A stretch of DNA of 64,000 bases from an uncultured Candidatus Saccharibacteria bacterium (GCA_964405015.1 CAYOME010000002.1:68174-132173), one strand, 5' to 3'; shown: positions 3,036 through 64,000, counted from the stretch's first letter. Translations and numbers: made by a program. The notes: a model not told the origin generated them from the sequence alone.

Positions 3036-3101
3036 CTTTTTTACTTATATATAGAATTTAAACCATTAAGTATTCCTGGATTAGTACTAATAACACCGAA
3101 T

Positions 3102-24098: not shown

Positions 24099-24150
24099 TT
24101 TGTATTGAAAAATCTTTAATCTATTGGTATTATTCTGTGTTCATTGAACT

Positions 24151-24223: not shown

Positions 24224-24373
24224 AAGCTAAAGCGTCTCTTGTATATCCCATAGCTATTAATTCCCCTACAAAGTCTTTATTTTAAATAGACAATTTGTTT
24301 CCAAGCTTACTAGCTTTTATAATTCTTACTGCAAAGTGGTAATATTGTTTATATAATCTCTTGAATTAAAAAC

Positions 24374-26747: not shown

Positions 26748-28346
26748 CTATACAGGCTTAGACATGTACATTCCAGTTTCATTAAAACCTCTCTTTTTAT
26801 AATATTGTTTAGTTCCGATAGCAGTAATTACGGAAATCTTTTTAAATCCTTCATCTTTGCTTATTTCTTGAGCTTTCTCTATCATTTTCTTACCCAAACC
26901 AAGATGTTGAGATTCTCCAGAGCTTTCATCCCCAATATTTACTAAAGAACCATATACATGTACCTCCCTTATTATTGCATGTCCATTAATCTCATCAATA
27001 TATGAATCTTTAAGAGGTAATGAAAGTCTTAAAAATGAACAGATCTTGTCTGATGTTTTAGTTTTGTATGAAATGAAATATTCATCTGAAACTGTAGTAT
27101 GGTAATTGAGTATCTCTAATTCTAAATCCTCCCATGTCACTCTCTCATCCTTTATTTCTCTACTTCGGATATCTTGAATACTTAGACCTAAACGTTTAAT
27201 TTCCCTCTCTGCTATTTCTCTAAAATTAGTAGACTTATTTCCATCCACTATCTCATTTGAAGGAATATCTCTTACAATCCTGGTTAGTCTTGTATATCTA
27301 GGTGTATTAGGAAGGATATTTACAAACAAATTCATTAATTCATCTTTAGAATACGGCTTGTATTTACCTTCTCTGTAATATTTCTCAAGCAAAGTATTAG
27401 ATATTATCGAAGTAGGGTAGATCTTTAATTCATCTGGAGAATATTCTTTATTCCAAAGCATATTAAAATCCAAAATATCTTTTTCCACTGATGAACCATA
27501 TAGATTGGGCATCCAATGAGCATGAATTTTAAAACCAGCAAGTCTTAACAATTCAAATGCTTTTTTGGTTTCGGTAGTGCTATGACCCCTTCTATTAAGT
27601 TCTAAGATTTTGTCATCTAAACTCTGTATCCCTATTTGAATCTTAGTAGCACCCAACTTTCTTAACCTAATGACTTCTTCAGGTGTAATGTAATCAGGTC
27701 TAGTTTCTAGAACTAATCCTACATTTCTACATACCGTTGTTTCATTGTATTTTTGGACTTCAAGAAGTTGTTCCCAAGAAATATCATTAATCCCTTCCTC
27801 ATTTTTTTCAAAAGAGGAATCACCAAAGCTATTCATAGCATCAAAACATCTCTTTACAAACCAAATGATGTATGATTCGGGGTAGAAGGAACAAGTACCA
27901 CCTAAAATTATCAACTCAACCTTGTCAGTATTATGACCAATATTTTGCAATGCCTTTATACGATTGTATGTTTGGTAGAATGGATCAAAATCATTTTTAA
28001 AAGCCCTCTGAGCCCCTGGTTCACTAGCTATATATGATTTAGGCATACTTGGGTCATTAGGGCAGAATATACAGTTCCCAGGACACCCAAAGGGCTTCAT
28101 GAGTACCGTAACAGTAGCCACTCCAGATTGAGTTCTAACAGGTTTCATCCTGATTCTCTCCTCAATATCCTTGTTTAGAGTAATCTCCCCATCATTAACC
28201 AACACTCTATATGCTTCTACCAGTTCATCATGTCTATATAACCCTTTCCCATCCTTTGGAAAACGCTTAAGAATACCCTGAAGAGAATTCTCCCTCCAAA
28301 ACCTCGTACCCTCAATCTCTTTGAAAATCTTTTTAAAATCATCCAT
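26748..28346 (-). CDS. elp3: Elp3-like tRNA-modifying radical-SAM / GNAT acetyltransferase
   Basis: PFGCPGNCIFCPN radical-SAM cluster motif after an N-terminal basic region. C-terminal GNAT domain (...HLGLGKKMIEKAQEISKDEGFKKISVITAIGTKQYYKKRGF). 532 aa, the size and architecture of archaeal/eukaryotic Elp3. Confidence 0.75.
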   Translation of the reverse strand: MDDFKKIFKEIEGTRFWRENSLQGILKRFPKDGKGLYRHDELVEAYRVLVNDGEITLNKDIEERIRMKPVRTQSGVATVTVLMKPFGCPGNCIFCPNDPSMPKSYIASEPGAQRAFKNDFDPFYQTYNRIKALQNIGHNTDKVELIILGGTCSFYPESYIIWFVKRCFDAMNSFGDSSFEKNEEGINDISWEQLLEVQKYNETTVCRNVGLVLETRPDYITPEEVIRLRKLGATKIQIGIQSLDDKILELNRRGHSTTETKKAFELLRLAGFKIHAHWMPNLYGSSVEKDILDFNMLWNKEYSPDELKIYPTSIISNTLLEKYYREGKYKPYSKDELMNLFVNILPNTPRYTRLTRIVRDIPSNEIVDGNKSTNFREIAEREIKRLGLSIQDIRSREIKDERVTWEDLELEILNYHTTVSDEYFISYKTKTSDKICSFLRLSLPLKDSYIDEINGHAIIREVHVYGSLVNIGDESSGESQHLGLGKKMIEKAQEISKDEGFKKISVITAIGTKQYYKKRGFNETGMYMSKPV

Positions 28347-31061: not shown

Positions 31062-34000
31062 TTACGCTCTTTCTACTTTAAGTCTAGTATTTATATATAT
31101 CTTACCCTTTGATTTGATAGTTGTCTTACCATCAATGATCCTAATGCTGTTATCAGCACTTTCAATTGCAAAATTACCGCTCTCATTGAGATCAAATGAA
31201 TATCTACCTTTTTCATCAGTGATTCTCTTTGCAACAATTTTTTCAAAATCTTTATCCTTAAGAACTAATGTAATGTTTGAAGCTGGAGTACCATTTGGAT
31301 ATGTTACTTTACCTAGTTTTTTACCCCTTCCACTAATACTTTTTATCAAGACAAAGACTGTAGGAATATACAAAAGAAGAAGTACTAGGTTAATGAGGTT
31401 TGATTCTTTGTTGTAGACATATATAGCAATGGTTAGGCCAAGTAGGAAGATTGCACAGTTAAGCAAAGGTAATATTAAGGATATCCCACTTCTTAAGACT
31501 GTTAATATTTTCTTTGTAGCTATATCTTCTTCAGGATCTAAAGGTATTACAATGTTTATTTCATTTTCTACTAATCGAACTTTTTCTCCATGGTAAACAT
31601 TTGAGAAAGGATAGTCTTCTTTTCCAAGGATTAATCTTGAAGGGAATTTGAAATCCCTTTTCTTAATATCAAGTATGTAATCCCCTGTATTTAGACCGAG
31701 ACGGAATTTACCTTGTCCGTCAGTAACGCTTGTATCTACTAATTTCTGGGAGAGATCATATACCCTAACGATAGCTTGTTGAAGGGGAGCTCTCGTAATA
31801 GAATCATATATATATCCAGCTGGTAATCTCTTCCTTCTAAATCCCAATGTACTTAATATATTTACAAATATTTGAGATATGGAATATCCTAATTGACCAA
31901 TATTTCCGAATATCGAGGCAAAACCAACAGATACTGTTACGGCTGTAGTCGTTGCAGCCACTGTTGTTAAATCTTCAGTCTGAATGTTTCCCAATGGCGT
32001 GTCATTTAAAGAATCTAAGGCTTTTGTTAAGGCACCTTCTACAGATTCTGTAATGTTCTTGAAAAGATTTGCACTGCTTGATGGAATATTCACTATTTCT
32101 TTTGATATCTCTTCTCCTTGTCCACCAGTACCACTTAGACCATCTGCGATCCAATACATAACCCCAGAGATACTAGCTTGAGATACGGTGACATTAGAAC
32201 CCTCAACTTCTTTTTTCTGAGGGAAATTACCAGTGTAAAGTATTCCATTTGGACAATCTTTGTTTACCTCTTCTAAGGAAATTGCTTCTGGACATATTCT
32301 AAATGCATTATCATTATCCTTTTTGATAACGTAGAGGGTAAATTTATCAGTTAATCCATGGGATTCATTTATCTTTACAACACTCTTACCCTCTTTAGGG
32401 GATGATTTAATTATTGCATTACTCCAATCTCTGTTGTCAGTGAATGAAATAGGGAGATCAGCAATTATATATTCTTCAGTAAGAACCCTTATCTTCTGTA
32501 CTCCAGTTTGTGCACCTTCCAGACTACTTACATCAATATCTGTATTGTCTAAAAGTATTGTGGATATATCTTCTGGTTTGTTTACAATGATAGAATATGT
32601 TTTCCCTGTATTACTCTCAATGTAGTTAGTTTCTACATTTGCTGAGTTAATAGCTTTAGCTCTAAAGGAATATTCAACACCTGGTTGGAGATTTCTAAAT
32701 ATTACTCCACTTGTATTGCCCCAAGAGGCATAGCTCCCCCAAACAGGAGTATCTACTAATGATTGAGTAGAGTAATCAAGATATTTTCCAGATATTTTAT
32801 CCTGTATTGCAAATTTAGTTGCGGTAGGGTTTAGGTTCCTATCAAACTTTATCCTTCCGGATGTACCTCCAACAATTTCAAAGGTTAAATCTTTTGGTGT
32901 ATTAGCCCATGTTGTAACTGAGATATCTTCTGACCAAGAAGAGTAGACCTCTTCGGAATTAATACTCCTTACTCTAAAATTGTATGTAGTATTTGGTGGT
33001 AAGGTATTTAGTTTAAATACCTGAGATATCCTTTCGTCAGTATGTATCACTGCAGTATTTGTAAGTGTTCCATCATTAGTAATATTCCCATTTGTATTTA
33101 TGTCTACTATTTGGTATCTGGTATTAGAAGGGTTATTATTTTTGTTTACAACTACCTCTATTGAAGAAGAGCTTATAACTCTAGCCGAAAGGGTTGTTGC
33201 ATTGGAAAGGGTATATGTACTTACAACTTGAGAACATTCAGTTTCAATATTGTTAATATTTTTTGCTTTTACACAGAATGAATATTGAGTATTAGGAGTG
33301 AGACCTTGAAGAGTAATACCTGTATTTCCCCCTATTTCTTCATATGTTTTCCAAAGAATTTCAGAAGAGAGTGTATTTGTTGAAGGTGTAACATATTTTC
33401 CACTCTTTGTTTCGGTAAGAGTATATAGAGTTGTATTTATATTTCCTTGGTTGTTAACTACAATTTTTAATGTTGTAGTATCAATTGCTTCAACAGATAC
33501 AATACTTGGTGCTTTTACTAAGGTTGTAAATGTTACTTCATTACTAAAGTTTGTATCCACTAAATCAATATTCTGAGCTTTGGCTCTAAATACGTATGTG
33601 CTGTTTGGAATTAAACCATATATTCTTTTACCTTCAAGTGAACCTAATTGAGTGTATGTGGAATAGTGGGGGGATTCTTGCAACAACTGTGTCTCGGAGT
33701 TAAAGTAAAGACCTGTATTTTTCTCCTCGATCAAATATTTTGTAGAAGAAGAGTTGTTTAAAGGATCTATTTGAATGTTTACACTCTCAGCATCAAAATC
33801 TTCTGATGTAATCTCTATTAAGGAAGGTACCTCTGCAAAGGTAGATGCAGAAACGGTATTAGAGAATGCACTCTCTGCAAGATTGTTGTAAATCTTGAAC
33901 TTTCTTACATATGTTGTATTTGGAATTAGTGAGTCTTCAGTACATGAAGTAATATCACTTCCTAAACATGTTTTAATCAAATCTCCATTTTCATTGTATA

Positions 34001-37000
34001 CCTTAATTCCTAATACTGAATCTGTATATGCAGAAATATTCCAAGTTATTTGATTCTTTGAATCAACTGTAGGAGTTAATGCCGATATTGATGACAGAGA
34101 AGATGTAGATGAAACGGTTGAGGAGTATGCAGTTTCAATATTTTCTGTATTTCTACCTTTTACTCTAAAGGTATATGTTGTACCCGATTGTAATCCCGTG
34201 ACTGTAATGGAAGGTGTAGCTCCTTCTAAATGCCCCCAGAAAGCAGTAGGTACCAATTCCCCTGTCGTTAGATTTACGTACATTCCTGTAAAAGTTTCTT
34301 GTATTAGTAATTCTGTTAGATTAGGGTTTGTCTCTTTATCAATACCTACAGTCATTTGTGTACTCCCAATTGTATTTACTGAAGAAATACTAGGTACTAC
34401 TGCTAGAGTATATGCATTTACTTCTGAAGAATATGCTGATTCCTCACCTGCGAAGTTTCTTGATTTTACTCTAAAGGTATATTGGGTATTTGGAGAAAGA
34501 TTAATAGCGACATCAGTAGTACTTTGTATCCAATCTTGAATTCCATTACTACAATTAATACTTACGCATTCAAAGAATATTCCAGAATCGCCAGAGGAGA
34601 GATTGTTTACTCCTGTACCACTTAAAGAAATCGATGTTGTTGAGAGTGGTCCTGCATTTAATACAGGTACTGAAGAATGTGTATATATTGTTAAATCAAA
34701 GGAATATGCTGTCTCCACCTGATCATTGTTTCTCGCTTTTACCCTAAATGTATATCCCGTATTGTTAGAAAGGCTTGTTACATTCGCAATGTTTGTTGTT
34801 GTCCAGGTATTAATATTTGTATCACATGAACCTTCACAATCGAAGTAAAGTTCTCCACCATTTACTGGTTGAGGTGCAGATATTGTAATCGAGTTTGATG
34901 TCTTTGTTCCTTGATATTGGATCTCTGGTACAGAGATTAATGTGTAAACAGAATCTGAATTTGATGCTTGGCTTTCAGCCTCTGAGTTGTAAGCTTTAAC
35001 ATATCGAGTATATTGTTTGTTTTCTAAAAGACCAGTCTCATCACAATATGTGAGGTTTTCTCCAACACATGTTTTAACAAGATTGTTTTCCTCATCATAT
35101 ATTCTAATACCATCTTCTCCATTCGCATTATCTGTAAATGACCACCGAATTGATGTAGTTGAAAGACCAGTACCTGAGAGGGTAGTAGGTGATACTGGAA
35201 TATCTAATGTTCTAAATGTATTTGTCGAAGACCAATTACTTACTGATCCACTACTATCCCAGAAGCGAATTCTCCAGTAGTAGGTTGTACCATTTGTAGT
35301 TATTGCTGTTCCAGCATATGGTATTTCTGGTGATCTTGAATTGCTTGGTATTGGTGTTACTGCAGTTTGATTTGAATCCCACATTACGGTACCAGTGAAT
35401 GTTGCATTACTGTTTACCTCTATCTCGTAATATGTTGCAGTATCTCCAGTATCAGAGTCATTAAAGATTGCACTAAATTCAGGAGTAATATCTGTAACTC
35501 TAGTTGGATTGGTTAATCCTTCAGTTTGAAGAGAAGTAGGTAGTCCTGGGGTGGTGTTCATACCAAAACTGCTAGTAGTAGACCAATCAGAAACAGTTCC
35601 ACTGTTATCCCAGAACCTAATTCTCCAGTAGTAAGTAATACCATTTAATGTAAGAGTAGTACCTGCGTATGATATATCTGAACTTCTAGCTCCAATGGCT
35701 ATTGGTGTAATTGCAGTTTGGTTGGAGTCCCACATGACAGTACCTGTAAATGTGTTGTTAGTATTAACCTCTATTTCGTAGTATGTTGCAGTATCTCCAG
35801 TATCAGAGTCATTAAAGATTGCACTAAATTCAGGAGTAGTATCTGTAACTCTAGTAGGATTGGTTAATCCCTCAGTTTGTAGAGAAGTAGGTAGTCCTGG
35901 GGTCGTATTCATCCTAAATGTTGCAGTAGAGGACCATCCTCCAACAGTTCCATAGCTATCAGTAAATCTAATTCTCCAGTAGTAAGTAGTACCGCTTAAT
36001 GTAAGAGCTGTTCCTGCATATGTAACAGCAGGAATTTGAGATCCAGAAGCAACTGGAGTGGAAGCAACTTGTCCTGTATCCCACATTATTGTGCCTGTGA
36101 AAGTGTTGTTGGTATTAACCTCAATTTCATAGTATGCCATATTATCGCTATCAGGATCAGAGTAGGTTGCCTTAAAATCGGGAGTGATATCTGTTAATCG
36201 AGTAGGGTTTGTTAGATCATTTACCAGAAGTGCCGAAGGTGTCGTAGGAGCTGTATTCATTTGGAAAGTTGATACAGTAGACCATGCTCCTACAGTTCCA
36301 TAGTTATCAGTAAATCTAATTCTCCAGTAGTAAGTAGTACCGCTTAATGTAAGTGCAGTACCTGCATATGAAATATCTGAACTTCTTGTCCCAATAGCTA
36401 TAGCTGTCATTGAAACTTGTCCAGTATCCCACATAACGGTACCCGTAAAGGTATTGTTAGTATTAACTTCAATTTCATAGTAGGTTGCAGTATTCCCTGA
36501 ATTGGGATCATTAAAAATAGCACTAAATTCTGGAGTAGTATCAGTTACTCCAACAGGATTTGTAGCACCTTCAGTTAGAAGAGATGTAGGAGCTGTTGGT
36601 GCTGTATTCATTGTAAAATTCGCAACTGCAGACCAAGTTCCTACTGCCCCATTATTATCCCAGAACCGAATTCTCCAGTAGTAAGTAGTACCGTTTAAAG
36701 TAAGAGCAGTACCAGCATATGAGATATCAGGACTTCTTGCTCCGATTGCTGTTGCGCTCATCGCTACTTGTCCAGAATCCCACATAACGGTACCAGTAAA
36801 GGTATTGTTGGTATTTACTTCTATTTCGTAGTAAGTGCCTGTATTTCCTGCGTTCCCATCATTAAAGATTGCACTAAATTCTGGAGTAGTATCAGTTACT
36901 CCAACAGGATTTGTAGCACCTTCGGCTAGAAGAGATGTAGGAGCTGTTGGTGCTGTATTTAATACTACAAAGTTTGCAGTAAACGAACCATCGGCAGTTA

Positions 37001-37616
37001 CATTTGTGTTTGTTCTTGGATTTGCTGTAGAGCCATCACTCCATTGGGAAAAAGCGTAACCTCCATTTGGTACTGCGGTTACTGCTGTACCACTACTACC
37101 TCTACAAATTGATTGAGAGGTAGTACCCGAAAGAGTACCTCCAGTACCTGCTGTGTATGTTAGTGTATATCTAAGAAGGTAGTATGTAAGCGTAGTTGTT
37201 CCACATTCCCCACAGTCATCATATCTTGTACATGAAGCAGTTGTCGTAGAGCAGCTTGTATTGGTTGCTGTATATCCAGTAGGTGTTACCGGAGTACAAC
37301 TATCACAAGCACCACAATCAGGCTCACAGTTATCACAGCAGTATCCTTGACCAGCATAGAATTCTGAAGAGTAACAATTATCGGCACCTTCATATCTACA
37401 TCCTCCAGGTCCAGTACATACTCCTAATGGTGAATTATACTCACATCCACTCGGACAAGTTTGTGCCTCTATTGGTGAGGATTTCGGAGTAACAAGAAAA
37501 ATGCTTAAAAAAGTTGCAACAAAAAGTACAAAAAGTGTAAATATGAAAAGAAAATTCTTCTTATTTTTAGTTCGAACTCTAATCATTATTTTTGTTACTT
37601 CCTTTTTTTCTTTCAC
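31062..37616 (-). CDS. Giant cell-surface protein (2184 aa): N-terminal anchor, Cys-rich module, >12 Fn3-like domains including 5 near-identical tandem copies, C-terminal TM + CarboxypepD_reg-like module
   Basis: N-terminal TM FLFIFTLFVLFVATFLSIFLV. A 20-Cys segment (CPSGCEYNSPLGVCTGPGGCRYEGADNCY...CCDNCEPDCGACDSCT). Repeated ...TYYWRIRF.D..G.VG.WS... Fn3 signature. C-terminal LGFRRKRLPAGYIYDSITRAPLQQAIVRVYD...GKEDYPFSNVYHGE...IVAKRITDEKGRYSF. Confidence 0.75.
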   Translation of the reverse strand: MKEKKEVTKIMIRVRTKNKKNFLFIFTLFVLFVATFLSIFLVTPKSSPIEAQTCPSGCEYNSPLGVCTGPGGCRYEGADNCYSSEFYAGQGYCCDNCEPDCGACDSCTPVTPTGYTATNTSCSTTTASCTRYDDCGECGTTTLTYYLLRYTLTYTAGTGGTLSGTTSQSICRGSSGTAVTAVPNGGYAFSQWSDGSTANPRTNTNVTADGSFTANFVVLNTAPTAPTSLLAEGATNPVGVTDTTPEFSAIFNDGNAGNTGTYYEIEVNTNNTFTGTVMWDSGQVAMSATAIGARSPDISYAGTALTLNGTTYYWRIRFWDNNGAVGTWSAVANFTMNTAPTAPTSLLTEGATNPVGVTDTTPEFSAIFNDPNSGNTATYYEIEVNTNNTFTGTVMWDTGQVSMTAIAIGTRSSDISYAGTALTLSGTTYYWRIRFTDNYGTVGAWSTVSTFQMNTAPTTPSALLVNDLTNPTRLTDITPDFKATYSDPDSDNMAYYEIEVNTNNTFTGTIMWDTGQVASTPVASGSQIPAVTYAGTALTLSGTTYYWRIRFTDSYGTVGGWSSTATFRMNTTPGLPTSLQTEGLTNPTRVTDTTPEFSAIFNDSDTGDTATYYEIEVNTNNTFTGTVMWDSNQTAITPIAIGARSSDISYAGTTLTLNGITYYWRIRFWDNSGTVSDWSTTSSFGMNTTPGLPTSLQTEGLTNPTRVTDITPEFSAIFNDSDTGDTATYYEIEVNSNATFTGTVMWDSNQTAVTPIPSNSRSPEIPYAGTAITTNGTTYYWRIRFWDSSGSVSNWSSTNTFRTLDIPVSPTTLSGTGLSTTSIRWSFTDNANGEDGIRIYDEENNLVKTCVGENLTYCDETGLLENKQYTRYVKAYNSEAESQASNSDSVYTLISVPEIQYQGTKTSNSITISAPQPVNGGELYFDCEGSCDTNINTWTTTNIANVTSLSNNTGYTFRVKARNNDQVETAYSFDLTIYTHSSVPVLNAGPLSTTSISLSGTGVNNLSSGDSGIFFECVSINCSNGIQDWIQSTTDVAINLSPNTQYTFRVKSRNFAGEESAYSSEVNAYTLAVVPSISSVNTIGSTQMTVGIDKETNPNLTELLIQETFTGMYVNLTTGELVPTAFWGHLEGATPSITVTGLQSGTTYTFRVKGRNTENIETAYSSTVSSTSSLSSISALTPTVDSKNQITWNISAYTDSVLGIKVYNENGDLIKTCLGSDITSCTEDSLIPNTTYVRKFKIYNNLAESAFSNTVSASTFAEVPSLIEITSEDFDAESVNIQIDPLNNSSSTKYLIEEKNTGLYFNSETQLLQESPHYSTYTQLGSLEGKRIYGLIPNSTYVFRAKAQNIDLVDTNFSNEVTFTTLVKAPSIVSVEAIDTTTLKIVVNNQGNINTTLYTLTETKSGKYVTPSTNTLSSEILWKTYEEIGGNTGITLQGLTPNTQYSFCVKAKNINNIETECSQVVSTYTLSNATTLSARVISSSSIEVVVNKNNNPSNTRYQIVDINTNGNITNDGTLTNTAVIHTDERISQVFKLNTLPPNTTYNFRVRSINSEEVYSSWSEDISVTTWANTPKDLTFEIVGGTSGRIKFDRNLNPTATKFAIQDKISGKYLDYSTQSLVDTPVWGSYASWGNTSGVIFRNLQPGVEYSFRAKAINSANVETNYIESNTGKTYSIIVNKPEDISTILLDNTDIDVSSLEGAQTGVQKIRVLTEEYIIADLPISFTDNRDWSNAIIKSSPKEGKSVVKINESHGLTDKFTLYVIKKDNDNAFRICPEAISLEEVNKDCPNGILYTGNFPQKKEVEGSNVTVSQASISGVMYWIADGLSGTGGQGEEISKEIVNIPSSSANLFKNITESVEGALTKALDSLNDTPLGNIQTEDLTTVAATTTAVTVSVGFASIFGNIGQLGYSISQIFVNILSTLGFRRKRLPAGYIYDSITRAPLQQAIVRVYDLSQKLVDTSVTDGQGKFRLGLNTGDYILDIKKRDFKFPSRLILGKEDYPFSNVYHGEKVRLVENEINIVIPLDPEEDIATKKILTVLRSGISLILPLLNCAIFLLGLTIAIYVYNKESNLINLVLLLLYIPTVFVLIKSISGRGKKLGKVTYPNGTPASNITLVLKDKDFEKIVAKRITDEKGRYSFDLNESGNFAIESADNSIRIIDGKTTIKSKGKIYINTRLKVERA
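35200..36960 (-). repeat. Five tandem ~349-351-bp near-identical repeats (116-117-aa Fn3 units) inside the giant gene
   Basis: The recurring DNA block ccagaaNNNaattctccagtagtaagtaNtacc appears at ~35272, 35621, 35971, 36321 and 36668. Protein units begin NTAPTAPTSLL / NTTPGLPTSLQ and end ...TYYWRIRF(W/T)D..G.V..WS....F.M. Confidence 0.85.
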
Positions 37617-56008: not shown

Positions 56009-56542
56009 CTATTCTTCCTTAGTATCTTTTACTTTCTTCTTAGCTACAGACTTTTTAACAACAGGCTTCTTAAGAGTATCAAGTGTAATTATGATCTCAT
56101 CTAATTTTGCAATTATCAATTCTAATTGCTCATTCTGTTTGTTACTTCCGCCACTGTTATTACTTCTCTCATGTGTGTTACCTCTTTTCTCAAAACAGCT
56201 ACTACAGTAAATAGGTTTATCTGAGCTTGGGTTGAAAGGTACTTTACACTCTTTACCACAATCATCGCATATGGCAGAAAACATTTGTTTCTCTCCTCTA
56301 TCCCTATCTCTAGAATCGCCATAGCTTCTTCTACTGTTATCTCTTCTTTCATATCTATTTGAATTACCACTACCCTGTTTTTCAAAACAGTTACTACAAT
56401 ATATTGGTTTATCTCCTGATGGTCTGAATGGTACTTGGCAATCTTTACCACATTGGTCACATACCGCTGGATACATTTCAGTTCTTCTTCCAGAATCTCT
56501 TCCTCCTGATCTACTATTACTATTTCTATCAAATCTTCCCAT
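56009..56542 (-). CDS. Tandem double zinc-ribbon protein with RS/RD-rich linkers
   Basis: Two copies of C-x2-CGK-x-C-x-VPF-x-PS-x-DKPIYCS-x-CFEK separated by NSNRYERRDNSRRSYGDSRDRDRGEK. The 56122..56532 antisense-frame ORF in the track is spurious. Confidence 0.5.
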   Translation of the reverse strand: MGRFDRNSNSRSGGRDSGRRTEMYPAVCDQCGKDCQVPFRPSGDKPIYCSNCFEKQGSGNSNRYERRDNSRRSYGDSRDRDRGEKQMFSAICDDCGKECKVPFNPSSDKPIYCSSCFEKRGNTHERSNNSGGSNKQNEQLELIIAKLDEIIITLDTLKKPVVKKSVAKKKVKDTKEE

Positions 56543-56761
56543 TTTTTATTAACTAATATTAATACTGCTATTCACTCTATATTATTTAGGTAGAGATAAC
56601 AAGGAAATAGGATGGTTATTGTAGTAGGTGGTGGTATCTTGTTGGAACATACCCAATTAATGATAGGATAATTAAAAGTAGATTTCGTAATCAGATTATT
56701 ACAAAGAATTTCTTTAATAAATATTACATACGTTTTTATGTATTTGTTATAATCACACATT

Positions 56762-57762: not shown

Positions 57763-58986
57763 CTATTCTAACATTCCTAATATCTCATCTCCTATTTCTT
57801 TGTTGAATCCAGAATATGCTTCTCCTCCTACAAATATAATAGGGTAGTAACCATATGTATCAGAAATTCCTTCACTTTTTGAAATACTACCCTTGTAGGC
57901 ATTAAGTTGAGTTCCAAAATCAGTATCTGTATTAAGATGTTCTTCATATTTAATGTTGTTCTTCTCAAAGAATTCTTCCATTTCTAAACACATTGGGCCA
58001 GTACCATTGTGGAAAACAACTACAGTGGTATCTGCTGTATTGGTAATACCGGAATCTCCCTCTATGAGGTCTTCTACCTTACAAGGGTTGGTAACATTCT
58101 CTTCTTCTTCATATGATATTGCAGGCCTAATCTTTTCTGGAGTATATGGAGCATTCTTGTTTACTGGTATCTGCCACATAGGCATCTCTTTATCTACAGT
58201 ACCGAAGGTATCAAGATCTACCCAATCTACTTCGTAGTTCTCCCACAATCTATGCCACATATCATTCCATCTTTCTTTGTAACCACCTATATATGTATGT
58301 GATACTGCCATGAACTTCTCGTTTTGTATGGCTCTCTTGTACTGTGTTTCCATATCTTCTGGTGAACCATTTCTTTCATAGAAGCTGTAATCACAGAAAC
58401 TGCCATATTTAAATTCTGGTACATCGATATTTGATACAGAAATGATTTTTACATCATATTCCTTTGGCTTGTATATTGTTGTGGCCAATTCTGTTGTACC
58501 TCTTGCTGTAATATATTCTATACCTAATTCTTGTGCTACTTTTACGGTATTTTCATCAGATGCCATATATCGTGAACTAATTACTCTTGGTGTTACTCCT
58601 AGATATGTTTGTGCATTTGTAATCATTTCTGAGATAATTTGGTATTGTTGATCATATGACATTCCCCAAAATGCTTCAGGATCATATGATGGAGCTAATT
58701 CTACAACTCCTGTCTTTAGTATTTCTTTCAATACATCTGAATGCTTCTCTATGAAGCTACCACTTACCATTAGTAAACCCTTTACATCTCTTTCTTTCAT
58801 ATCATTTACCATATTGACTAAACCATCAGTATTTTGAAATTCGATAAGGAGCATCATGGCTCGTGGAGTAGGGATCTCCTCTTGTACATCTCTACAGGCA
58901 TATTTGTTTACAATGAAATATTCTCCTGTAAGAAGGAGTAAAATACCTACTAATATGGAAAATATGATGAATGGTTTTTTATTCAT
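57763..58986 (-). CDS. Signal-anchored hypothetical protein (possible polysaccharide-deacetylase-like N-domain plus thioredoxin-fold-like C-domain)
   Basis: N-terminal TM. The C-terminal VVVFHNGTGPMCLEMEEFFEKNNIKYEE resembles a glutaredoxin-like fold with a single Cys. Weak. Confidence 0.3.
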   Translation of the reverse strand: MNKKPFIIFSILVGILLLLTGEYFIVNKYACRDVQEEIPTPRAMMLLIEFQNTDGLVNMVNDMKERDVKGLLMVSGSFIEKHSDVLKEILKTGVVELAPSYDPEAFWGMSYDQQYQIISEMITNAQTYLGVTPRVISSRYMASDENTVKVAQELGIEYITARGTTELATTIYKPKEYDVKIISVSNIDVPEFKYGSFCDYSFYERNGSPEDMETQYKRAIQNEKFMAVSHTYIGGYKERWNDMWHRLWENYEVDWVDLDTFGTVDKEMPMWQIPVNKNAPYTPEKIRPAISYEEEENVTNPCKVEDLIEGDSGITNTADTTVVVFHNGTGPMCLEMEEFFEKNNIKYEEHLNTDTDFGTQLNAYKGSISKSEGISDTYGYYPIIFVGGEAYSGFNKEIGDEILGMLE

Positions 58987-58987
58987 C

Positions 58988-59302
58988 TTAGAGGGTTAAT
59001 AATTTAAAAAGTTTTTTTAAAATTTCCTTTTTTGATTCTTCCAAATGGTATATGACATGTTGTCCATTCTTGATGCTAGATATATATCTCAAGTCTTGTA
59101 ATTTTTTAAGGTGGTGAGATATTAAGTTATGTTTTAATTCCAAATGTTTGACCATTTGGCAAACGCAGGTATCTTTTTTGAGTAGAAGATTTAGTATTTG
59201 AATACGGTTCGAAACTAATAGATTTCTAACTTCATTAATGTTTTCTTCCTTGATATATTTCAACATATATTGAAATATATCTTTTCTTAAAATATCAGTC
59301 AA
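58988..59302 (-). CDS. ArsR/SmtB-family transcriptional regulator
   Basis: CVCQMVKHLELKHNLISHHLKKLQDLRYIS (HTH with a Cys pair). Confidence 0.5.
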   Translation of the reverse strand: MTDILRKDIFQYMLKYIKEENINEVRNLLVSNRIQILNLLLKKDTCVCQMVKHLELKHNLISHHLKKLQDLRYISSIKNGQHVIYHLEESKKEILKKLFKLLTL

Positions 59303-59312
59303 TATTTAAACA

Positions 59313-59594
59313 CTATGACTCTCTTTTAGTTATTGATATTGCGTAACCGTTAACTAAAGCCTCTGTGATTTTTTGCATAACAAAAGTAAGATCTCTTTGA
59401 TATTGGCTTTGAGAGATACCCATCATTTGAGCTGCTTTTTCTTGATCAATATTTTCTATGTATCTTAATCTTAGTGTCTCTAACTCTTCATCTGTAATAT
59501 TTACTTCTTGAAGGTCTCTTAGGGGTATCCCTCTCGGCTTGAAGTAATTATTGCTAAATTGTATTCCTAGTCTTCTTCTGAATCTCGGTCTCAT
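59313..59594 (-). CDS. DUF134 (UPF0251) DNA-binding-like protein
   Basis: With start MRPRFRRRLGIQFSNNYFKPRGIPLRDLQEVNITDEELETLRLRYIENIDQEKAAQMMGISQSQYQRDL... this matches the M-RPRK-RR...FKP.G.P....V.LT.EE.EALRL.D...Q..AA..MGVS..T..R.L pattern. The track start at 59654 overlaps the upstream gene. Confidence 0.55.
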   Translation of the reverse strand: MRPRFRRRLGIQFSNNYFKPRGIPLRDLQEVNITDEELETLRLRYIENIDQEKAAQMMGISQSQYQRDLTFVMQKITEALVNGYAISITKRES

Positions 59595-59596
59595 AT

Positions 59597-59812
59597 TTAA
59601 CAATACTCTCCTTTTAGTTGTGTACCACATTTGGGGCATACTTTCTTTGTACAAGGTATTCCTCTTGTATGTGGTTCTGTATATCCACAGTTAGGACATT
59701 TACAGATTTGTGAACCACCTTGTCTTTTTCCTCTTGATCTAGGAAGAAAGCCTAATCTTCTTCCAGTCATTGGGCCTTGACCTAATGGTCCAGTATTGTC
59801 TAAGTTTGGCAT
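59597..59812 (-). CDS. DUF5320-like small protein (GTGP-x-G-x-GP-x-TGRG N-terminus + C-terminal zinc ribbon)
   Basis: MPNLDNTGPLGQGPMTGRRLGF...CKCPNCG...CPKCG. Confidence 0.5.
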   Translation of the reverse strand: MPNLDNTGPLGQGPMTGRRLGFLPRSRGKRQGGSQICKCPNCGYTEPHTRGIPCTKKVCPKCGTQLKGEYC

Positions 59813-59987
59813 AAGGATATAAATAAAAATTTATTAATGGGTATATACCCATAACTAAGTATATATCAGTTATTAATTTAATGTCAAGATCTATTAGTAG
59901 GTAGGATATGTTGGTGACTGATTCTTTAAAAATTATAATATGGAGATTTTAAGTGATGAAATATTTAGTTTCTGATATCATTCGTAT

Positions 59988-60557
59988 ATGTATGAAGCAA
60001 ATGAATTAACTATTAAAGAGAATGAAGTAGAAAAATACCTATCTTCAGGTTTACAGACTAATATATCCCCTGAAATACAAAAAATAGCTTCTGAGATTAA
60101 AGGGGCAGTTCTTGAAAAAGTACAAAAAATCCTTGAATTTGGTCCAACACTAGTAGAGGTAAGGGAATATGACAAGAATATTTTTAGAAAAAGAACAGGT
60201 GAGGAGATTATTAGGGAGAGATACATTACTGGATGTACAGACGCAGTATTAGCCTTTATCGTAATATCTAGAGCAAGTGGTATACCTACTAAATATGTAG
60301 AAACTATAGATGTTGGATGGCTTAAAAGCGGCGGAGATACAATAGATGGACATGTATATGCTCAGGTTTATGATTACTTACAAGATGAATGGGTATGGGT
60401 AGATCCAATGTTTGGGGAAATTGGTAAATCTCCAACAGAGAAGCAGAGGGTTGTATTTGGTGAAGGTCTTGATTCTTGGGATTTAGGAATTAAAGATGAG
60501 AATAGCCTAAGGAGTAAGTTCGAAGAATTTAGAAATCAGTTTAATTTGCAATTATAG
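59988..60557 (+). CDS. Transglutaminase-like cysteine-peptidase-fold protein
   Basis: Cys-His-Asp triad context ITGCTDAVLAF ... GHVYAQVYD ... WVWVDP. Confidence 0.5.
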   Translation: MYEANELTIKENEVEKYLSSGLQTNISPEIQKIASEIKGAVLEKVQKILEFGPTLVEVREYDKNIFRKRTGEEIIRERYITGCTDAVLAFIVISRASGIPTKYVETIDVGWLKSGGDTIDGHVYAQVYDYLQDEWVWVDPMFGEIGKSPTEKQRVVFGEGLDSWDLGIKDENSLRSKFEEFRNQFNLQL

Positions 60558-60758
60558 ATTCTCAAATATTACTGAATATTTGTATGTCTTTAGTTCCTCT
60601 CGTAATTCTTTTTTCTTTAGATAATTATCACTATCTACTAATTCATTTCTAACAAGATTGTCCGCAATATGAAGAACTGCACTAGAGGGAATATTGAAAT
60701 AATTTGATACAGCAAAGAATGTCTATGTTTCCATTTCTACACCTAAATATCCATCCAT
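60555..60758 (-). pseudogene. Remnant of a nucleoside phosphorylase (PNP/MTAP/MTA-nucleosidase family) C-terminus with an in-frame TAG
   Basis: Minus-strand translation MDGYLGVEMET*TFFAVSNYFNIPSSAVLHIADNLVRNELVDSD... matches the ...GVEMEAAA..FAV......P...I..ISD.V... C-terminal motif of the PNP_UDP_1 family. An AGGAGG sits upstream of the ATG, a stop falls where Ala is expected, and the N-terminal ~150 aa of the enzyme are missing. Confidence 0.5.
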
Positions 60759-60950
60759 AGTATCCAGCTATTCCTCCTATTATTAAATATTCTCAGATTG
60801 GAATATTCCTGAATAGATTGTTTAAAATAGGTGTTGAGAGAATATTATGAAAATGGAGGATATATGGATCTGGAACCAAAATGAAATAATAAAATAAAAG
60901 GGGAAGAGATATTCTTCCCCAGTTCTTTTCCATTTATTAAAATTTGTGAA

Positions 60951-61280
60951 TTACTTCACAACAACAGTCATGTTACCTAAATCATAAGATTTAAGATAGT
61001 CTCCTCCAAGATATTGGGTAAAAATATCGCGTAAATAATTAACTCCAGCTCCCCGAAGTTCTTGATCAGGTAATAATGCTGAATCAAATAACAAATCTAC
61101 AGCTATATCACTTCCTCCACCTGTTCTTACTTTAAGTTGAATAAATGCTGAGTTTTTATCAGCAATCTTTTTACAAGCTTCTACTAATTGAATTTTGGAT
61201 ATGTAATCCGTTGAGAATTTAATAGTTCCAGAATAATAATCTGGTTTTAAATTCTCCTCTAATATGTTTGGTTTTTTCAT
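60951..61280 (-). CDS. Hypothetical protein (109 aa)
   Basis: ORF only, downstream of the SUKH-like gene. Confidence 0.3.
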   Translation of the reverse strand: MKKPNILEENLKPDYYSGTIKFSTDYISKIQLVEACKKIADKNSAFIQLKVRTGGGSDIAVDLLFDSALLPDQELRGAGVNYLRDIFTQYLGGDYLKSYDLGNMTVVVK

Positions 61281-61331
61281 TGAATTAAAAAATAAAAATT
61301 AAAAGATAAAATGGAAAAGCTATATATTATA

Positions 61332-61745
61332 TCATTCTTTAATTATATCCTCGATCTCTTTCTTAATTTCATCAAATCGTTGTTTAAGAGTATTCTCATC
61401 ATTAGCAAAAATCTTTAATGATCCATCTTCATGATTATAAAGATAAACCTTTCCATCTTTGTTTGTATTCAAGGTTAAGCAATATAGATCTTCATTAGCT
61501 ATGATGACATGATTCTCTGGTAGATATTCCTTCCACTCTCTATTTTCCTTTACAACATCATCTTGAGTATGGAATATATCTTCTTTATCTAATACGGAAA
61601 AGAATCTATATCCTCCTATATAGAAACCATTTTTTTCTTTAAGATATTCTCGTATTAATGATGGATATTCAATATTTAAAATAGTTTCGGCATTTGTAAT
61701 AGACTGATCATTGGTAATTACTTTCTTTGGAAATTTAGTACCCAT
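61332..61745 (-). CDS. SMI1/KNR4 (SUKH-1) family protein, putative immunity protein
   Basis: ...YPSLIREYLKEKNGFYIGGYRFFSV... and ...IIANEDLYCLTLNTNKDGKVYLYNHEDGSLKIFANDENTLKQ, typical of the SUKH-1 fold pattern. Confidence 0.5.
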   Translation of the reverse strand: MGTKFPKKVITNDQSITNAETILNIEYPSLIREYLKEKNGFYIGGYRFFSVLDKEDIFHTQDDVVKENREWKEYLPENHVIIANEDLYCLTLNTNKDGKVYLYNHEDGSLKIFANDENTLKQRFDEIKKEIEDIIKE

Positions 61746-61874
61746 TTAAAATATATTACTTATTTTATATTGTAATTATACCAGTTTTAAATATTCAAAT
61801 ATAAATGGAAGGTCATGTTGAATATGGAAGGCCTGTGAGTCTGGTACCTATGTAAAATGGGAATTTGGGAGGAA

Positions 61875-62882
61875 CTATCTTAGAATATAGAAGCTATTTT
61901 TTGTACTACCCTGTTTCTCTAAATAACCCTTTGAAACAAGACCATCTAAAAGATTAAAAGCTTGTTGTCTAGAAATATTTAAATCTTTAGAAACATCCGA
62001 AGAAGTAATCTCTTTGTATTTCTTTATTAATTCCAATACATCGTTTTCTCTCTTTGTGGGTCTCATATCAAAAGAAATATTTATTAAACCTTCCTTTATC
62101 TTAGCTAATGCAGATTGTAAAGAATATTTAACACCATCTGTAAAATACTCTAACCATTCTGTTTTATCTCCGCTATCTGCAGAGTGTAAAGAGTCAGAGT
62201 ACTGAATCCTATCTATATCATAGTAGTCATCAAGTATGAAATACTTATTTATCTTGTATCCAAGCTTATCTAACAAAAGAGTTGTAGTTAATCTACAAGC
62301 TCTACCATTACCATCAACGAATGGATGGATATATACAAATTCATGATGATATATTCCTGCTTTAAGTATTGGTAGCTCTTGTGATGTATTTGTCCAATCC
62401 ATTAGTTCTTCTAGTAGTTTTGTTATTTCTTTCCTAGTATGTTTAGGTGGTTCATGTTTTATAACAATATTACCATCTTGGGCAGGATTACCAACTACAA
62501 CTTTTCTATTTCTAATCTCACCTCCTATTTGATTTTCCACTCCTTGCAAAAGCTGTTTGTGAATCTTTAGTAGGGTATCTATATCTAAGGTGTCATATTC
62601 TTTCCCTACCTGTTTTAGAATATCAAAATAGTTCTTTACTTCTTTTTCATCTCTATTCGCAGGTACTCTACCACCTAGTATTAAGTTAGTAACTTCTTCT
62701 TGAGATAGTGGGTTACCTTCAATACTGTTTGAAGAGAATGAAGATTTAACTAGATTGTGTTTTTCTAAGTTAAGAAGTAATTGCTTTGGAACTACTTGTG
62801 ATTCTAATTGACCGTAGAGTCTTTCAATAGAGGAAATATTTTCTAAGAGTTTTTTACTTAGTTTGTATTTTGTATTTACCAT
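61875..62882 (-). CDS. Fic-family protein (class II, N-terminal inhibitory motif), putative AMPylase
   Basis: Fic motif HPFVDGNGRACR (HPFx[DE]GNGR). N-terminal SSNSIEGN fits the [ST]xxxE[GN] inhibitory helix. C-terminal winged-helix-like segment. Confidence 0.75.
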   Translation of the reverse strand: MVNTKYKLSKKLLENISSIERLYGQLESQVVPKQLLLNLEKHNLVKSSFSSNSIEGNPLSQEEVTNLILGGRVPANRDEKEVKNYFDILKQVGKEYDTLDIDTLLKIHKQLLQGVENQIGGEIRNRKVVVGNPAQDGNIVIKHEPPKHTRKEITKLLEELMDWTNTSQELPILKAGIYHHEFVYIHPFVDGNGRACRLTTTLLLDKLGYKINKYFILDDYYDIDRIQYSDSLHSADSGDKTEWLEYFTDGVKYSLQSALAKIKEGLINISFDMRPTKRENDVLELIKKYKEITSSDVSKDLNISRQQAFNLLDGLVSKGYLEKQGSTKNSFYILR

Positions 62883-63077
62883 AACCTATTATTATATGGA
62901 TATGTAAAATAATTGTCAAGGTATTTGACAAGGTAATTGTAAAGATGGGAGGTTATTATCAACTTTCATACACGGGAGCTTACTTTTGGGACTTTTACTT
63001 TTTAAGGTCAAAATAACTCAATTCCCCATAAGGATTTTTAAGCATAAAAAACGAGTCTTGTTGGAACATGTTGAAAT

Positions 63078-63106
63078 TGGCGGGGTGGACGGGACTCGAA
63101 CGAGAC
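63078..63106 (-). other. tRNA 3'-end-like remnant (T-loop + acceptor 3' strand + CCA) at the composition boundary. Possible integration-site scar.
   Basis: The minus strand reads ...G-TTCGAGT-CCCGT-CCACCCC-G-CCA, a canonical T-loop, 7-nt acceptor strand, discriminator and CCA. No complementary 5' acceptor (GGGGTGG) or T-stem partner upstream, so it is not a complete tRNA. GC content rises from here to the window end. Confidence 0.3.
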
Positions 63107-63257
63107 AAGAATAAATGCAAGCAAGTAAAGGGTTTCTTGGTAACATGGTTCGAACATCGTTCCATAAGTGGAACGAATAATTGAAAAGAAATTCAAAGTA
63201 TTAATTTTAATAAAGCTTACTGATGAAAGATATCTTTTGGATAGGGGAAATCTCAAA

Positions 63258-63294
63258 GGGGAATGCCTGGTTTGGAAGCCATATGGCATCCCCC
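63258..63294 (-). terminator. Candidate intrinsic terminator after the 68-aa peptide gene
   Basis: GGGGAATGCC-(17 nt)-GGCATCCCCC, a 9-bp GC-rich stem with one mismatch. On the minus strand it is followed by TTTGAGATTT, 10 nt after the stop codon. Confidence 0.45.
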
Positions 63295-63303
63295 TTCTTG
63301 ATC

Positions 63304-63510
63304 TTATAACTGGTCGAAAGGTTCAACGATTTTCGCGTCGAGTAGCTCTTGTAGAAATTCATCGGTATCCACCTCTTCGGAGGAATTTGTTAAGTTCAGG
63401 AATCGGTTGTATTCCTCCTCTTGAAGACAGGTTATGCCTTCTGAACTTTCGATGACTCCACCAAACGCTTCTCCGCGATGCTTGACTCCTTGAACGATTT
63501 TAACTTTCAT
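63304..63510 (-). CDS. Small acidic protein (68 aa) translationally coupled to the radical-SAM/SPASM gene. Either a PqqD-like RRE/chaperone or a precursor peptide.
   Basis: The ATG sits 1 nt after the maturase TAA, with GAGGAG 4 nt upstream. Sequence MKVKIVQGVKHRGEAFGGVIESSEGITCLQEEEYNRFLNLTNSSEEVDTDEFLQELLDAKIVEPFDQL. The C-terminal DEFLQELLDAKIV resembles the PqqD-family helix. Confidence 0.5.
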   Translation of the reverse strand: MKVKIVQGVKHRGEAFGGVIESSEGITCLQEEEYNRFLNLTNSSEEVDTDEFLQELLDAKIVEPFDQL

Positions 63511-63511
63511 C

Positions 63512-64000
63512 TTACTCCTCCATTAATGGATCTAAACCGGTCTCTTTGCCAGTATAGCTCAAGGCTGATGCCCTGCATCCACCATGACAGTAAGAGACAA
63601 GCTCACAGCTTCGGCACGTCGTCGGAGTATTCCGAAACTCTCTAATCCTAATTAGCTCTGGAGCGTTCTGCCAGATTTGGAAAAGATTATCTCGGAGAAT
63701 GTTCCCCACGACGGTTGGTAGTTCCACGCACGGCCTGAGGTCTCCATTGGGAGATACTACAATCTGTGAGATAGCAGCATCGCAGGAGTTAGCAATCAGG
63801 ACCGGTCTTTCAGGGTCTTCTTCGGGTAATACACAATAAGGCATACCTCCTGTCATACCAACGTCAATAACGCTCGAGAGATCTTGGAGTTGTTCGTAAA
63901 CTCGATTCAGATCAACTCGATTACAGACGAGGTTGTTTCGGGAAGCTTCTCCACAGTAGGAGACAATCCCTACCGAGAAGTACTGCACGCCAAGTTCCGC
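63512..64000 (-). CDS. Radical-SAM enzyme, C-terminal SPASM/twitch domain (peptide-modifying maturase family), 5'-partial at the window edge
   Basis: GMPYCVLPEE...ANSCDAAISQIVVSPNGDLRPCVE...CRSCELVSYCHGGCRA (C-x2-C-x5-C-x3-C). The frame is open to the last base of the window. ~48% GC versus ~30% for the rest. Confidence 0.65.
   Translation of the reverse strand, partial: AELGVQYFSVGIVSYCGEASRNNLVCNRVDLNRVYEQLQDLSSVIDVGMTGGMPYCVLPEEDPERPVLIANSCDAAISQIVVSPNGDLRPCVELPTVVGNILRDNLFQIWQNAPELIRIREFRNTPTTCRSCELVSYCHGGCRASALSYTGKETGLDPLMEE

Follow-up and report, generated by a model that had tools for sequence, protein, structure and literature searches.

The 64,000-nucleotide (nt) stretch of DNA analyzed here (GCA_964405015.1, CAYOME010000002.1:68174-132173), referred to in its full length as the window, carries near its end a 2.9-kb patch in which a Fic gene, a SUKH gene, a gene for a small protein of 109 amino acids (aa), a fragment of a nucleoside phosphorylase gene and a transglutaminase-like gene lie side by side. 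We consider it probable that this patch is a stretch of a cassette array, in which several small units are lined up next to one another, rather than a single system. Its genes are ordinary members of known families, and the region is accessory, partly decayed and conflict-flavored. The proteins of the window are bacterial (SecA, an M23 peptidase, histidine kinases and a bacterial Elp3), and sequence relationships place the array-bearing window in a Candidatus Dojkabacteria host, within the Candidate Phyla Radiation (CPR). Composition offers no evidence that the patch is foreign, as its G+C content (28-34%) does not differ from that of the genome (32.7%).

Arrays of this kind start at a tRNA-Asp(GTC) gene, or in some genomes at tRNA-Ser(GCT), and continue as a row of one- or two-gene units split by co-oriented repeats. 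This layout was found in ~20 species-level genomes and 77 metagenome contigs, and the tRNA-Asp at the array head is flanked by thioredoxin, GGDEF, TsaD and TsaE genes. When loci selected for the presence of Fic were searched with an nhmmer model of the 138-nt repeat unit, all 68 copies were co-oriented with Fic (68/68). Fic was not used in choosing a second, repeat-selected set, for which a metagenome collection was scanned with CCGCCA-N10-GTTCCAACAAGAC and then with nhmmer, yielding 163 copies on 77 contigs. Repeats in this set are co-oriented in 47/47 multi-copy contigs, and ~110 copies that retain the first box are internal, all of them co-oriented. The median start-to-start spacing of repeats is ~1.1 kb. 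Full tRNAs carry 25 repeat copies, 18 on Asp and 7 on Ser(GCT); because of these 7 copies (in L086, L088, L115 and other compared loci, which are numbered with L throughout), at least two tRNA genes anchor arrays.

The content between repeats differs among genomes, and the same genes recur elsewhere in fixed orientation. Exactly one open reading frame (ORF) is present in 59 of 86 repeat intervals, and the 122 ORFs, which fall into 86 clusters, comprise 49 that are co-oriented with the repeats and 73 that are antisense. In the repeat-selected set, Fic lies between repeats and co-oriented with them in 8/8 cases, the transglutaminase-like gene between repeats and antisense in 6/6, and intact PNP (the nucleoside phosphorylase gene) between repeats and co-oriented in 4/4, and the window agrees with all three. 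Other cargo includes NUDIX proteins, methyltransferases, SDR and HD proteins, histidine phosphatase, hydrolases, S51 peptidase, nucleoside deoxyribosyltransferase and RuBisCO large subunit, among others. An AbiEii-family toxin gene with an upstream partner lies between repeats a few kb upstream of Fic in L009 (4173-5643) and L029 (285-1671), and defense-type cargo therefore recurs in arrays.

The repeat is directional and ~140 nt long (~220 nt with a left arm), beginning with the last 25 nt of tRNA-Asp. These first 25 nt occur in two discrete versions, the tRNA type versus GGTTCCAGACGTGTATGTCCCGCCA. The true tRNA-end version is found on tRNAs and at 22 internal sites and the GGTTCCAGACGTGTATGTCCCGCCA version at 64 sites, never on a tRNA, a pattern that fits what would be expected of attB- and attP-derived junctions. 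The same left arm precedes 10 internal copies beside different genes; it was seen before internal tRNA-type copies in L013, L015, L093, L097, L115, L136, L157, L159 and L162, and it holds GGAACGGTGTTCGAAC, which copies the T-loop part of the repeat, ~47 nt away, imperfectly and in inverted form. RNAalifold predicts a modest hairpin between the left arm and box A (the first repeat box), and the left arm and T-loop segment might together form a hairpin recombination site. Short inverted segments are present in the repeats (box B versus box C, left arm versus box A), with no clear attC ends. A conserved RNA structure of the repeat was rejected, RNAalifold giving only −0.45 kcal/mol for the 138-nt core.

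Read along the minus strand toward lower coordinates, the array in the window is made up of the following features:

63304..64000, minus: radical SAM/SPASM gene (runs off the window) and 68-aa gene, a neighboring cassette with a G+C content of 43-49%
63102..63179, minus: conserved left arm of the repeat, ~78 nt, with an imperfect inverted T-loop copy; precedes 10 distinct internal copies
62964..63101, minus: full repeat R1, the tRNA-Asp 3' end TTCGAGTCCCGTCCACCCCGCCA plus ~113 nt of conserved downstream sequence, no tRNA 5' part (nhmmer E 6e-35)
62891..62931, minus: Fic promoter TTGACA-17-TATAAT, its −35 box overlapped by the palindrome TTGTCAA-N5-TTGACAA; the stretch is conserved across all Fic loci
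61875..62882, minus: SoFic-type class II Fic AMP-transferase with C-terminal winged helix, 335 aa, as assigned from Pfam, PADLOC and motif alignment
61805..61848, minus: decayed repeat R2 between Fic and SUKH (score 30 versus a shuffle mean of 17.9, reached by 1/500 shuffles)
61332..61745, minus: SUKH (SMI1/KNR4) immunity-type protein, 137 aa, with three SUKH Pfam families above their cut-offs
60951..61280, minus: conserved small protein of 109 aa with a ferredoxin-like beta-alpha-beta-beta-alpha-beta fold (family and AlphaFold2), in an operon with SUKH
60900..60920, minus: intrinsic terminator hairpin, GGGGAAGAATATCTCTTCCCC then TTTTATTTTA, closing the SUKH and 109-aa unit; conserved in L003
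60829..60877, minus: decayed repeat R3, tRNA-3'-end-like, GGTTCCAGATCCATATATCCTCCA... (score 39 versus a shuffle mean of 18.1, reached by 0/500 shuffles), followed by ~70 nt without detected homology
60560..60755, minus: remnant of a PNP_UDP_1 gene (nucleoside phosphorylase family), 3' part only and interrupted by an in-frame stop (tblastn against the L025 protein)
59988..60557, plus: transglutaminase-like single-gene cassette, 189 aa (Pfam Transglut_core 2.7e-8)
57763..59812, minus: four-gene block in the order DUF5320, DUF134, ArsR, polysaccharide deacetylase (Pfam), 80% nucleotide identity to L023 13261-15328
56581..56650, minus: possible distal decayed repeat R4, ATGTTCCAACAAGAT... (weak; score 31 versus a shuffle mean of 18.6, reached by 2/500 shuffles)

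R1 shares homology with full tRNA-Asp(GTC) genes in L006, L023, L026 and L035, namely with their 3' end and flank, and these full genes cover repeat positions 1-25. Its TTCGAGTCCCGTCCACCCCGCCA, ~200 nt upstream of Fic on the minus strand, is the 3' end of a tRNA, T-loop through CCA. At 63077-63300 neither ARAGORN nor Rfam (gathering and E-value thresholds) detected a tRNA, a tmRNA or another known RNA, and this idea was rejected; likewise rejected was a 5S rRNA or other RNA downstream of the relatives' tRNA-Asp, suggested by GCCTGGTGG and TTCGAAG, for which Rfam gave nothing. At R2, homology to L025 continues into a recognized repeat copy of that locus (window 61814 corresponds to L025 4226), and homology to L003 starts close by, at 61859. 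R3 has an nhmmer E of 0.1 (9-kb search), matches an L025 repeat copy over 60840-60894 (75% identity, E 7e-5) and begins 11 nt past the end of the L003 homology at 60888. R4 has one mismatch to the core 12-mer and an nhmmer E of 0.22.

The units between these copies have separate distributions. The Fic unit of ~1.1 kb shows ~85% nucleotide homology to >20 loci, in each case over window 61814/61875..62939/62951 only, i.e. from 60-70 nt upstream of the ATG to 0-60 nt past the stop codon in every relative, and Fic occurs in at least three unrelated neighborhoods. L003 shares the window only over 61859..60888 (95.8% identity), a span that consists of the SUKH upstream region, SUKH, the 109-aa gene and the terminator hairpin, and the flanks differ. 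The L003 SUKH homologue (93%) sits after a 211-aa HExxH protein, where the window has Fic, and that HExxH protein is 67% identical to the product of a gene two cassettes away in L013. Judged from these alignments, SUKH and the 109-aa gene move together, as a unit independent of Fic.

Nucleotide homology of the transglutaminase-like gene is confined to 59973-60538, and its homologues (57-69%) occur as single genes between repeats on six contigs of the repeat-selected metagenome set, in each case antisense to the repeats. It is convergent with the PNP remnant, which reads DGYLGVEMET*TFFAVSNYFNIPSSAVLHIADNLV... and corresponds to residues 188-254 of the intact 259-aa L025 protein (54% identity, local E 1e-25, one in-frame stop). 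The intact L025 protein (L025:5376-6155) matches PNP_UDP_1 at 7.5e-24. At the nucleotide level the remnant is 75.6% identical to intact copies in L090, L125 and L129, with homology ending at 60755/60756. The intact catalytic domain of this family (~230-260 aa) is lacking in the window fragment, which amounts to the 3' third of the gene and is a pseudogene remnant of a PNP_UDP_1 member; the 5' two-thirds would have been lost beside R3.

In L023, the four-gene block is flanked on both sides by repeat copies (11149-11283 and 15436-15531), and the order there is tRNA-Asp, repeat, S51-peptidase cassette, repeat, Fic, repeat, an unrelated 578-aa gene, the four-gene block and repeat. Because this syntenic locus keeps Fic and the four-gene block and lacks SUKH, the 109-aa gene, PNP and the transglutaminase-like gene, these last four are variable in presence and absence. 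A preliminary description of the window had depicted the patch as an accessory islet with local gene decay, containing a truncated, stop-containing gene of the PNP/MTA (methylthioadenosine)-nucleosidase family and adjoining a transglutaminase-like protein. The L023 comparison and the lack of synteny across distant relatives support an accessory, variable region, the decay is seen in one gene (PNP), and both gene assignments hold. The start that was given for the islet, 59978, belongs to a spurious antisense ORF.

Units of these arrays would most likely be gained, lost and swapped by directional recombination at the tRNA-derived repeats. One possible route is serial att-type site-specific integration by a recombinase encoded elsewhere, which would fit arrays that are anchored at tRNAs, strictly polar and built with two types of junction; the main alternative route is that the repeats serve as portable homology for homologous exchange. 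We tentatively suggest, at somewhat less than even probability, that Ca. Dojkabacteria, and perhaps other CPR bacteria, possess an undescribed integron-like capture system in which promoter-bearing cassettes of ~1 kb are serially inserted in fixed orientation, at sites of 140-220 nt that stem from a tRNA-Asp or tRNA-Ser 3' end and its downstream flank, by a recombinase acting in trans and encoded away from the array. It is similarly conceivable, under such capture, that Fic, the transglutaminase-like gene, PNP, SUKH and dozens of small enzymes are the circulating cargo.

The repeats might instead be ordinary intergenic elements, whether similar to repetitive extragenic palindromic sequences or miniature inverted-repeat transposable elements, dispersed tRNA derivatives, or regulatory or terminator elements, with plain gene gain and loss and no cassette mechanism. 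Housekeeping genes between copies in L029, the failure to find a recombinase in the window or the arrays, and the lack of a strong conserved secondary structure or known RNA family for the repeat all agree with this explanation, and local co-orientation could also come from a genome-wide repeat polarity. It is nevertheless unlikely, given that copies are clustered (one strong and three weak in the last 7.5 kb of the window and 0 in the other 56 kb) and that the clusters start at full tRNA-Asp or tRNA-Ser genes. Moreover, repeat orientation is independent of the flanking genes overall yet fixed per gene family, homology breakpoints between loci fall at repeats, and the junctions are of two discrete types.

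Several observations weigh against an array of mobile cassettes. Pfam searches of 30 array ORFs, a Pfam summary of 82 cassette representatives and motif scans for tyrosine and serine recombinases turned up no integrase or other recombinase, either in the window or within an array (~100 loci); the box II motif scan gave no tyrosine recombinase inside arrays, and the motifs matched only two genes, one Xer-like and close to a tRNA cluster (L030), the other for a large serine recombinase by tRNA-Val (L091). Two scans of IMG/VR viral contigs gave no matches to the repeat. Class I LysRS, AspRS, LD-carboxypeptidase and ABC ATPase genes lie between two repeat copies in L029 (11542-19938), and UppS and a ClpB-like gene are among the array cargo; since housekeeping genes can be enclosed by repeats, not all inter-repeat DNA need be mobile. 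Copies R2, R3 and R4 of the window are weak, the tRNA-Asp of this genome lies outside the window end and was not seen, and all sequences compared are metagenome assemblies, which are error-prone at repeats; read sets related to the window are SRR8925765, SRR8925775 and SRR8925805, and the sources of related contigs include activated sludge, fermentation and AnMBR samples. The functions proposed below for Fic, SUKH and the 109-aa protein are taken solely from family membership. Finally, the only circular-looking contig, L003 (1757 nt, SRR8925765), can be explained by two HExxH paralogues that share a 25-mer.

L003 has this identical 25-mer at both ends, within its HExxH gene, and closure would give a 1732-nt circle with HExxH, SUKH and the 109-aa gene as putative cargo, either a real circle or tandem array or an artefact. 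We rejected it as an excised circular cassette, the 25-nt overlap lying in a segment common to the two paralogues and thus being a possible assembly artefact. The serine recombinase-like ORF of L091 (7733-9541), which encodes 602 aa with the motif LYIRVSTEEQ, directly adjoins tRNA-Val and tRNA-Leu; an array-anchoring tRNA-Asp follows 3.2 kb downstream, and no other such gene was seen near an array.

The array reading of the window's outer end involves the radical SAM/SPASM cassette, which is 100% identical in L013, where it lies between repeat copies amid DNA of 30-34% G+C. Its presence beside Fic might be due to an assembly join across the repeat at ~63055-63101, chimeric between positions or strains. 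Six independent Logan contigs end at 63055/63072, six assemblies thus breaking inside R1, the Fic contig L001 begins at 62931, G+C jumps from 31% to 47% at the junction, and no second assembly spans it; because the six contigs end inside R1, the adjacency of the radical SAM gene and Fic is seen in the window assembly only. We still regard such a join as unlikely, as the embedding of the same high-G+C cassette between repeats in low-G+C Dojkabacteria-type DNA in L013 indicates that it belongs to arrays of this sort. The order of Fic, SUKH, the 109-aa gene and the PNP fragment, which is backed by L001 and L003, is unaffected by the junction. A radical SAM gene in L025 was discarded as support for the adjacency, since it is a mere 24% paralogue. 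In L013 (2091-3351) the radical SAM/SPASM gene encodes 350 aa and is followed by the acidic 68-aa ORF, together a compact, compositionally foreign cassette, and the two are possibly a peptide-maturase pair.

The Fic protein matches Pfam Fic (PF02661) at 1.6e-20 (74 bits, cut-off 24), and its motif HPFVDGNGRACR at residues 186-197 (62327..62292) fits HxFx[DE]GNGRxxR. SSNSIEGN, which the preliminary description had taken for a class II autoinhibitory helix, occupies residues 50-57 (62735..62712), and alignment of SNSIEGN (residues 51-57) with the inhibitory-helix motifs TVAIEGN of FICD and SLAIEN of 4RGL supports that view. By this alignment Fic is assigned to class II, with the [ST]xxxE[GN] inhibitory motif in cis and N-terminal to the Fic core. 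The PADLOC SoFic model PDLC03963 matches at 9.8e-50, with residues 10-333 corresponding to model positions 23-350 of 361; because the model spans these residues, there is no space for a delivery domain, which answers the earlier question of whether one is fused to the N-terminus. The NCBIfam SoFic equivalog NF046030 is not reached (47.2 bits versus a cut-off of 550), nor is the VbhT model (27.5 bits, cut-off 800). Residues 280-330 give weak winged-helix matches (TrmB/MarR) in Pfam.

Orthologues that are 82-93% identical occur in ~30 other loci. The nearest proteins (88-92%) are named Candidatus Dojkabacteria by NCBI, and a scan with one genome per species found Fic at 82-92% in ~19 species-level Dojkabacteria/Patescibacteria metagenome-assembled genomes (MAGs) and at 53-62% in other CPR lineages of Microgenomates-type phyla, including Daviesbacteria, Woesebacteria, Collierbacteria and Gottesmanbacteria. 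No separate, co-conserved small antitoxin gene was found beside Fic across the compared Fic loci, and no AS1-like small gene conserved downstream was found across >20 homologous loci; because cassette homology stops at the stop codon, there is no conserved small flanking ORF. The Fic promoter is the sole 12/12 promoter match within 59800-63300, and the perfect palindrome overlapping its −35 box (62913-62931) may be an operator for the winged helix of Fic itself. The AMP-transferase would be restrained by its own N-terminal Glu-containing helix and probably auto-regulated through binding of the winged helix at the palindrome. By family membership, it probably acts as SoFic proteins do, in abortive-infection-type defense or stress-triggered AMPylation.

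The 137-aa protein, described earlier as SUKH-like in pattern, passed the hidden Markov model (HMM) test for that family, matching SUKH_5 (7.8e-14, 52.1 bits, cut-off 27), SMI1_KNR4 (1.4e-12, 48.7 bits, cut-off 25.4) and SUKH_6 (1.9e-11, 44.9 bits, cut-off 27). Its close relatives are few. PADLOC gave no match for the SUKH, 109-aa or transglutaminase-like protein. In L002 the gene immediately behind an HNH nuclease gene encodes a 46% homologue (P0002), and a SUKH gene behind a nuclease is the classical SUKH context (PMC3113570). The L002 pair (2707-3971, GCA_964592675.1) comes directly after tRNA-Gln(CTG), the called HNH ORF overlapping the tRNA, and is another tRNA-adjacent conflict pair, in a related MAG. 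As a member of its family, the window SUKH may be an orphan immunity protein against incoming toxins, nuclease or other.

The 109-aa ORF had been called an orphan; the gene is real, but it is not strictly an orphan, as an exhaustive HMMER search recovered a family of 21 cluster representatives at E<=1e-3, mostly of 103-118 aa. It has no Pfam, NCBIfam or PADLOC match, and the protein is 98% identical in another sample. Four stretches of P0132, a protein of 2099 aa, match the family, and the domain therefore also exists as a repeat in a giant protein. A 38% homologue, P0125, has a housekeeping context with no SUKH nearby. The AlphaFold2 model (predicted local distance difference test score, pLDDT, 93) has a ferredoxin-like fold; a fold-based function was rejected because the PDB fold matches are generic ferredoxin-like ones with a template modeling (TM) score of ~0.5, and a PDB sequence search gave no hits. 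A 46-aa ORF at 60793-60933 was dismissed as mere translation across the terminator and repeat.

A toxin/immunity or toxin/antitoxin module made up of Fic and SUKH, perhaps together with the 109-aa protein, is quite improbable; in it, SUKH would neutralize the Fic AMP-transferase, either as Imm-SUKH does with Tox-DOC polymorphic toxins or as the small AS1 does with E. coli SoFic. In its favor, the genes stand in the order toxin, immunity on the same strand, 129 nt apart and with no terminator predicted until 60900, their adjacency recurs in the independent assembly L001 (99.87% identity), Imm-SUKH is recorded as the immunity protein of secreted Tox-DOC toxins (PMC3482391) and one SoFic protein is reported with a downstream antitoxin (PMC12249575). 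Against it, none of the Fic orthologues (82-93%, ~30 loci) lies near a SUKH gene, the homology of the Fic cassette stops at the Fic stop codon, a decayed repeat remnant separates the two genes, the SUKH unit has its own upstream region behind HExxH in L003 and a homologue behind HNH in L002, Fic has its own inhibitory helix and no delivery domain, and SUKH has no PADLOC match. Neither tblastn nor a three-sequence HMM found a SUKH gene in the other fetched loci, which include 19 species-level Fic loci (~14 with at least 1.2 kb downstream) and 8 repeat-selected metagenome Fic loci. Nor is the architecture of a polymorphic toxin seen, the 335-aa Fic being wholly covered by the SoFic model and the pairing absent in other Fic loci. 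Fic and SUKH are most probably neighbors through cassette shuffling and not partners, and a local functional link is unlikely; we keep some link as a rival because of the Imm-SUKH/Tox-DOC precedent and because there is no terminator between the genes. Of the toxin/immunity or defense patch proposed earlier, the two conflict-type families (SoFic-model Fic and SUKH) stand, but their union into one toxin/immunity unit does not.

Beyond the array, a 177-aa protein with two treble-clef zinc-finger repeats (zf_Tbcl_2, 6.6e-35) and arginine/serine-rich linkers is encoded at 56009-56542, just past the last putative repeat remnant. A bacterial Elp3 homologue, a radical SAM/GNAT tRNA-modification enzyme (26748-28346; TIGR01211, 9.8e-150), lies near tRNA-Lys(CTT) at 24150-24224. 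The same gene set (NDK, UDG, Elp3-like, NYN and tRNA-Lys) also occurs in L009 and L011, where it lies within a few kb of Fic on the downstream side. The window further contains a 2184-aa ORF on the minus strand (31062-37616).

These results remove a tempting toxin/immunity annotation for a Fic gene beside a SUKH gene and leave Fic as a stand-alone SoFic-type gene that is widely conserved in the CPR. Bacteria of the CPR have tiny genomes, and only a small number of classical mobile elements are on record for them. An array of single-gene cassettes anchored at a tRNA would account for the way in which these bacteria maintain and trade their flexible genes, a pool that includes defense, immunity and small metabolic 'housecleaning' enzymes. 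The repeat offers a sequence handle for finding this pool in metagenomes and for hunting the recombinase, and because repeats break assemblies, MAGs of these organisms probably capture too few of their flexible genes. If true, integron-like capture would be a dedicated platform for flexible genes in genome-reduced symbionts.

Among known systems, the class II Fic proteins of SoFic type are reported to be a single-gene anti-phage system acting by AMPylation, with phage protection and AMPylation toxicity known only for E. coli and Shewanella proteins and one E. coli example having a 47-aa downstream antitoxin, AS1 (PMC12249575). The window Fic resembles them (PDLC03963; S. oneidensis SoFic, EcSofic) in its full-length model match, in its inhibitory helix [ST]xxxE[GN], HPFxDGNGRxxR motif and C-terminal winged helix, and in standing alone in variable genomic contexts. 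It differs in scoring 47 bits against the NCBIfam cut-off of 550, in having no conserved downstream AS1-like gene and in belonging to a CPR-wide lineage with 53-62% identity across Microgenomates-type phyla. Unlike VbhT/VbhA, FicT/FicA and Doc/Phd, it carries the inhibitory motif in cis, with no separate antitoxin gene. The window SUKH is like the SUKH immunity proteins of polymorphic toxins (PMC3113570, PMC3482391, PMC12247911) in its SUKH_5, SUKH-1 and SUKH_6 membership, in having a homologue after HNH, and in being small, cytoplasmic and located in a variable region. Unlike them, it lies beside no toxin that bears a secretion or trafficking domain and is paired with the 109-aa ferredoxin-like protein, whose family is not otherwise linked to SUKH.

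The arrays themselves recall two types of gene-capturing structure. Prochlorococcus tycheposon islands are tRNA-anchored, with scattered partial tRNAs (bioRxiv 10.1101/2020.12.28.424599). The arrays share with them a full tRNA at one end, scattered direct repeats of partial tRNA 3' ends with older copies decayed, diverse adaptive and defense cargo and a streamlined host genome; the combination of a full tRNA and internal 3'-part direct repeats is present in the metagenome set, and the window shows partial copies only. Array units differ in being ~1 kb, usually one gene, without an integrase or replication module, and the array repeat extends over ~140-220 nt, with conserved boxes well past the tRNA, versus an att site of ~40 nt. 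An element-encoded integrase was not found in ~100 array loci. Chromosomal integrons, whose attC sites are directional repeats of 60-150+ nt, likewise form arrays of mostly single-gene, ~1-kb units with directional repeats, conserved ends and a variable middle, and have very diverse cargo with a fixed orientation per cassette type. Here the differences are that no intI lies at the array head, which is instead a tRNA gene beside housekeeping genes, that array repeats have a tRNA 3' end at their start and show no clear RYYYAAC/GTTRRRY ends, and that array cassettes have their own promoters and lie in either orientation (49 co-oriented and 73 antisense). Our literature search found no description of integrons or similar elements in CPR bacteria, Patescibacteria or Dojkabacteria, which is not proof of novelty. 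In a lineage for which no such description was found, the array is a variant of tRNA-anchored or integron-like gene capture.

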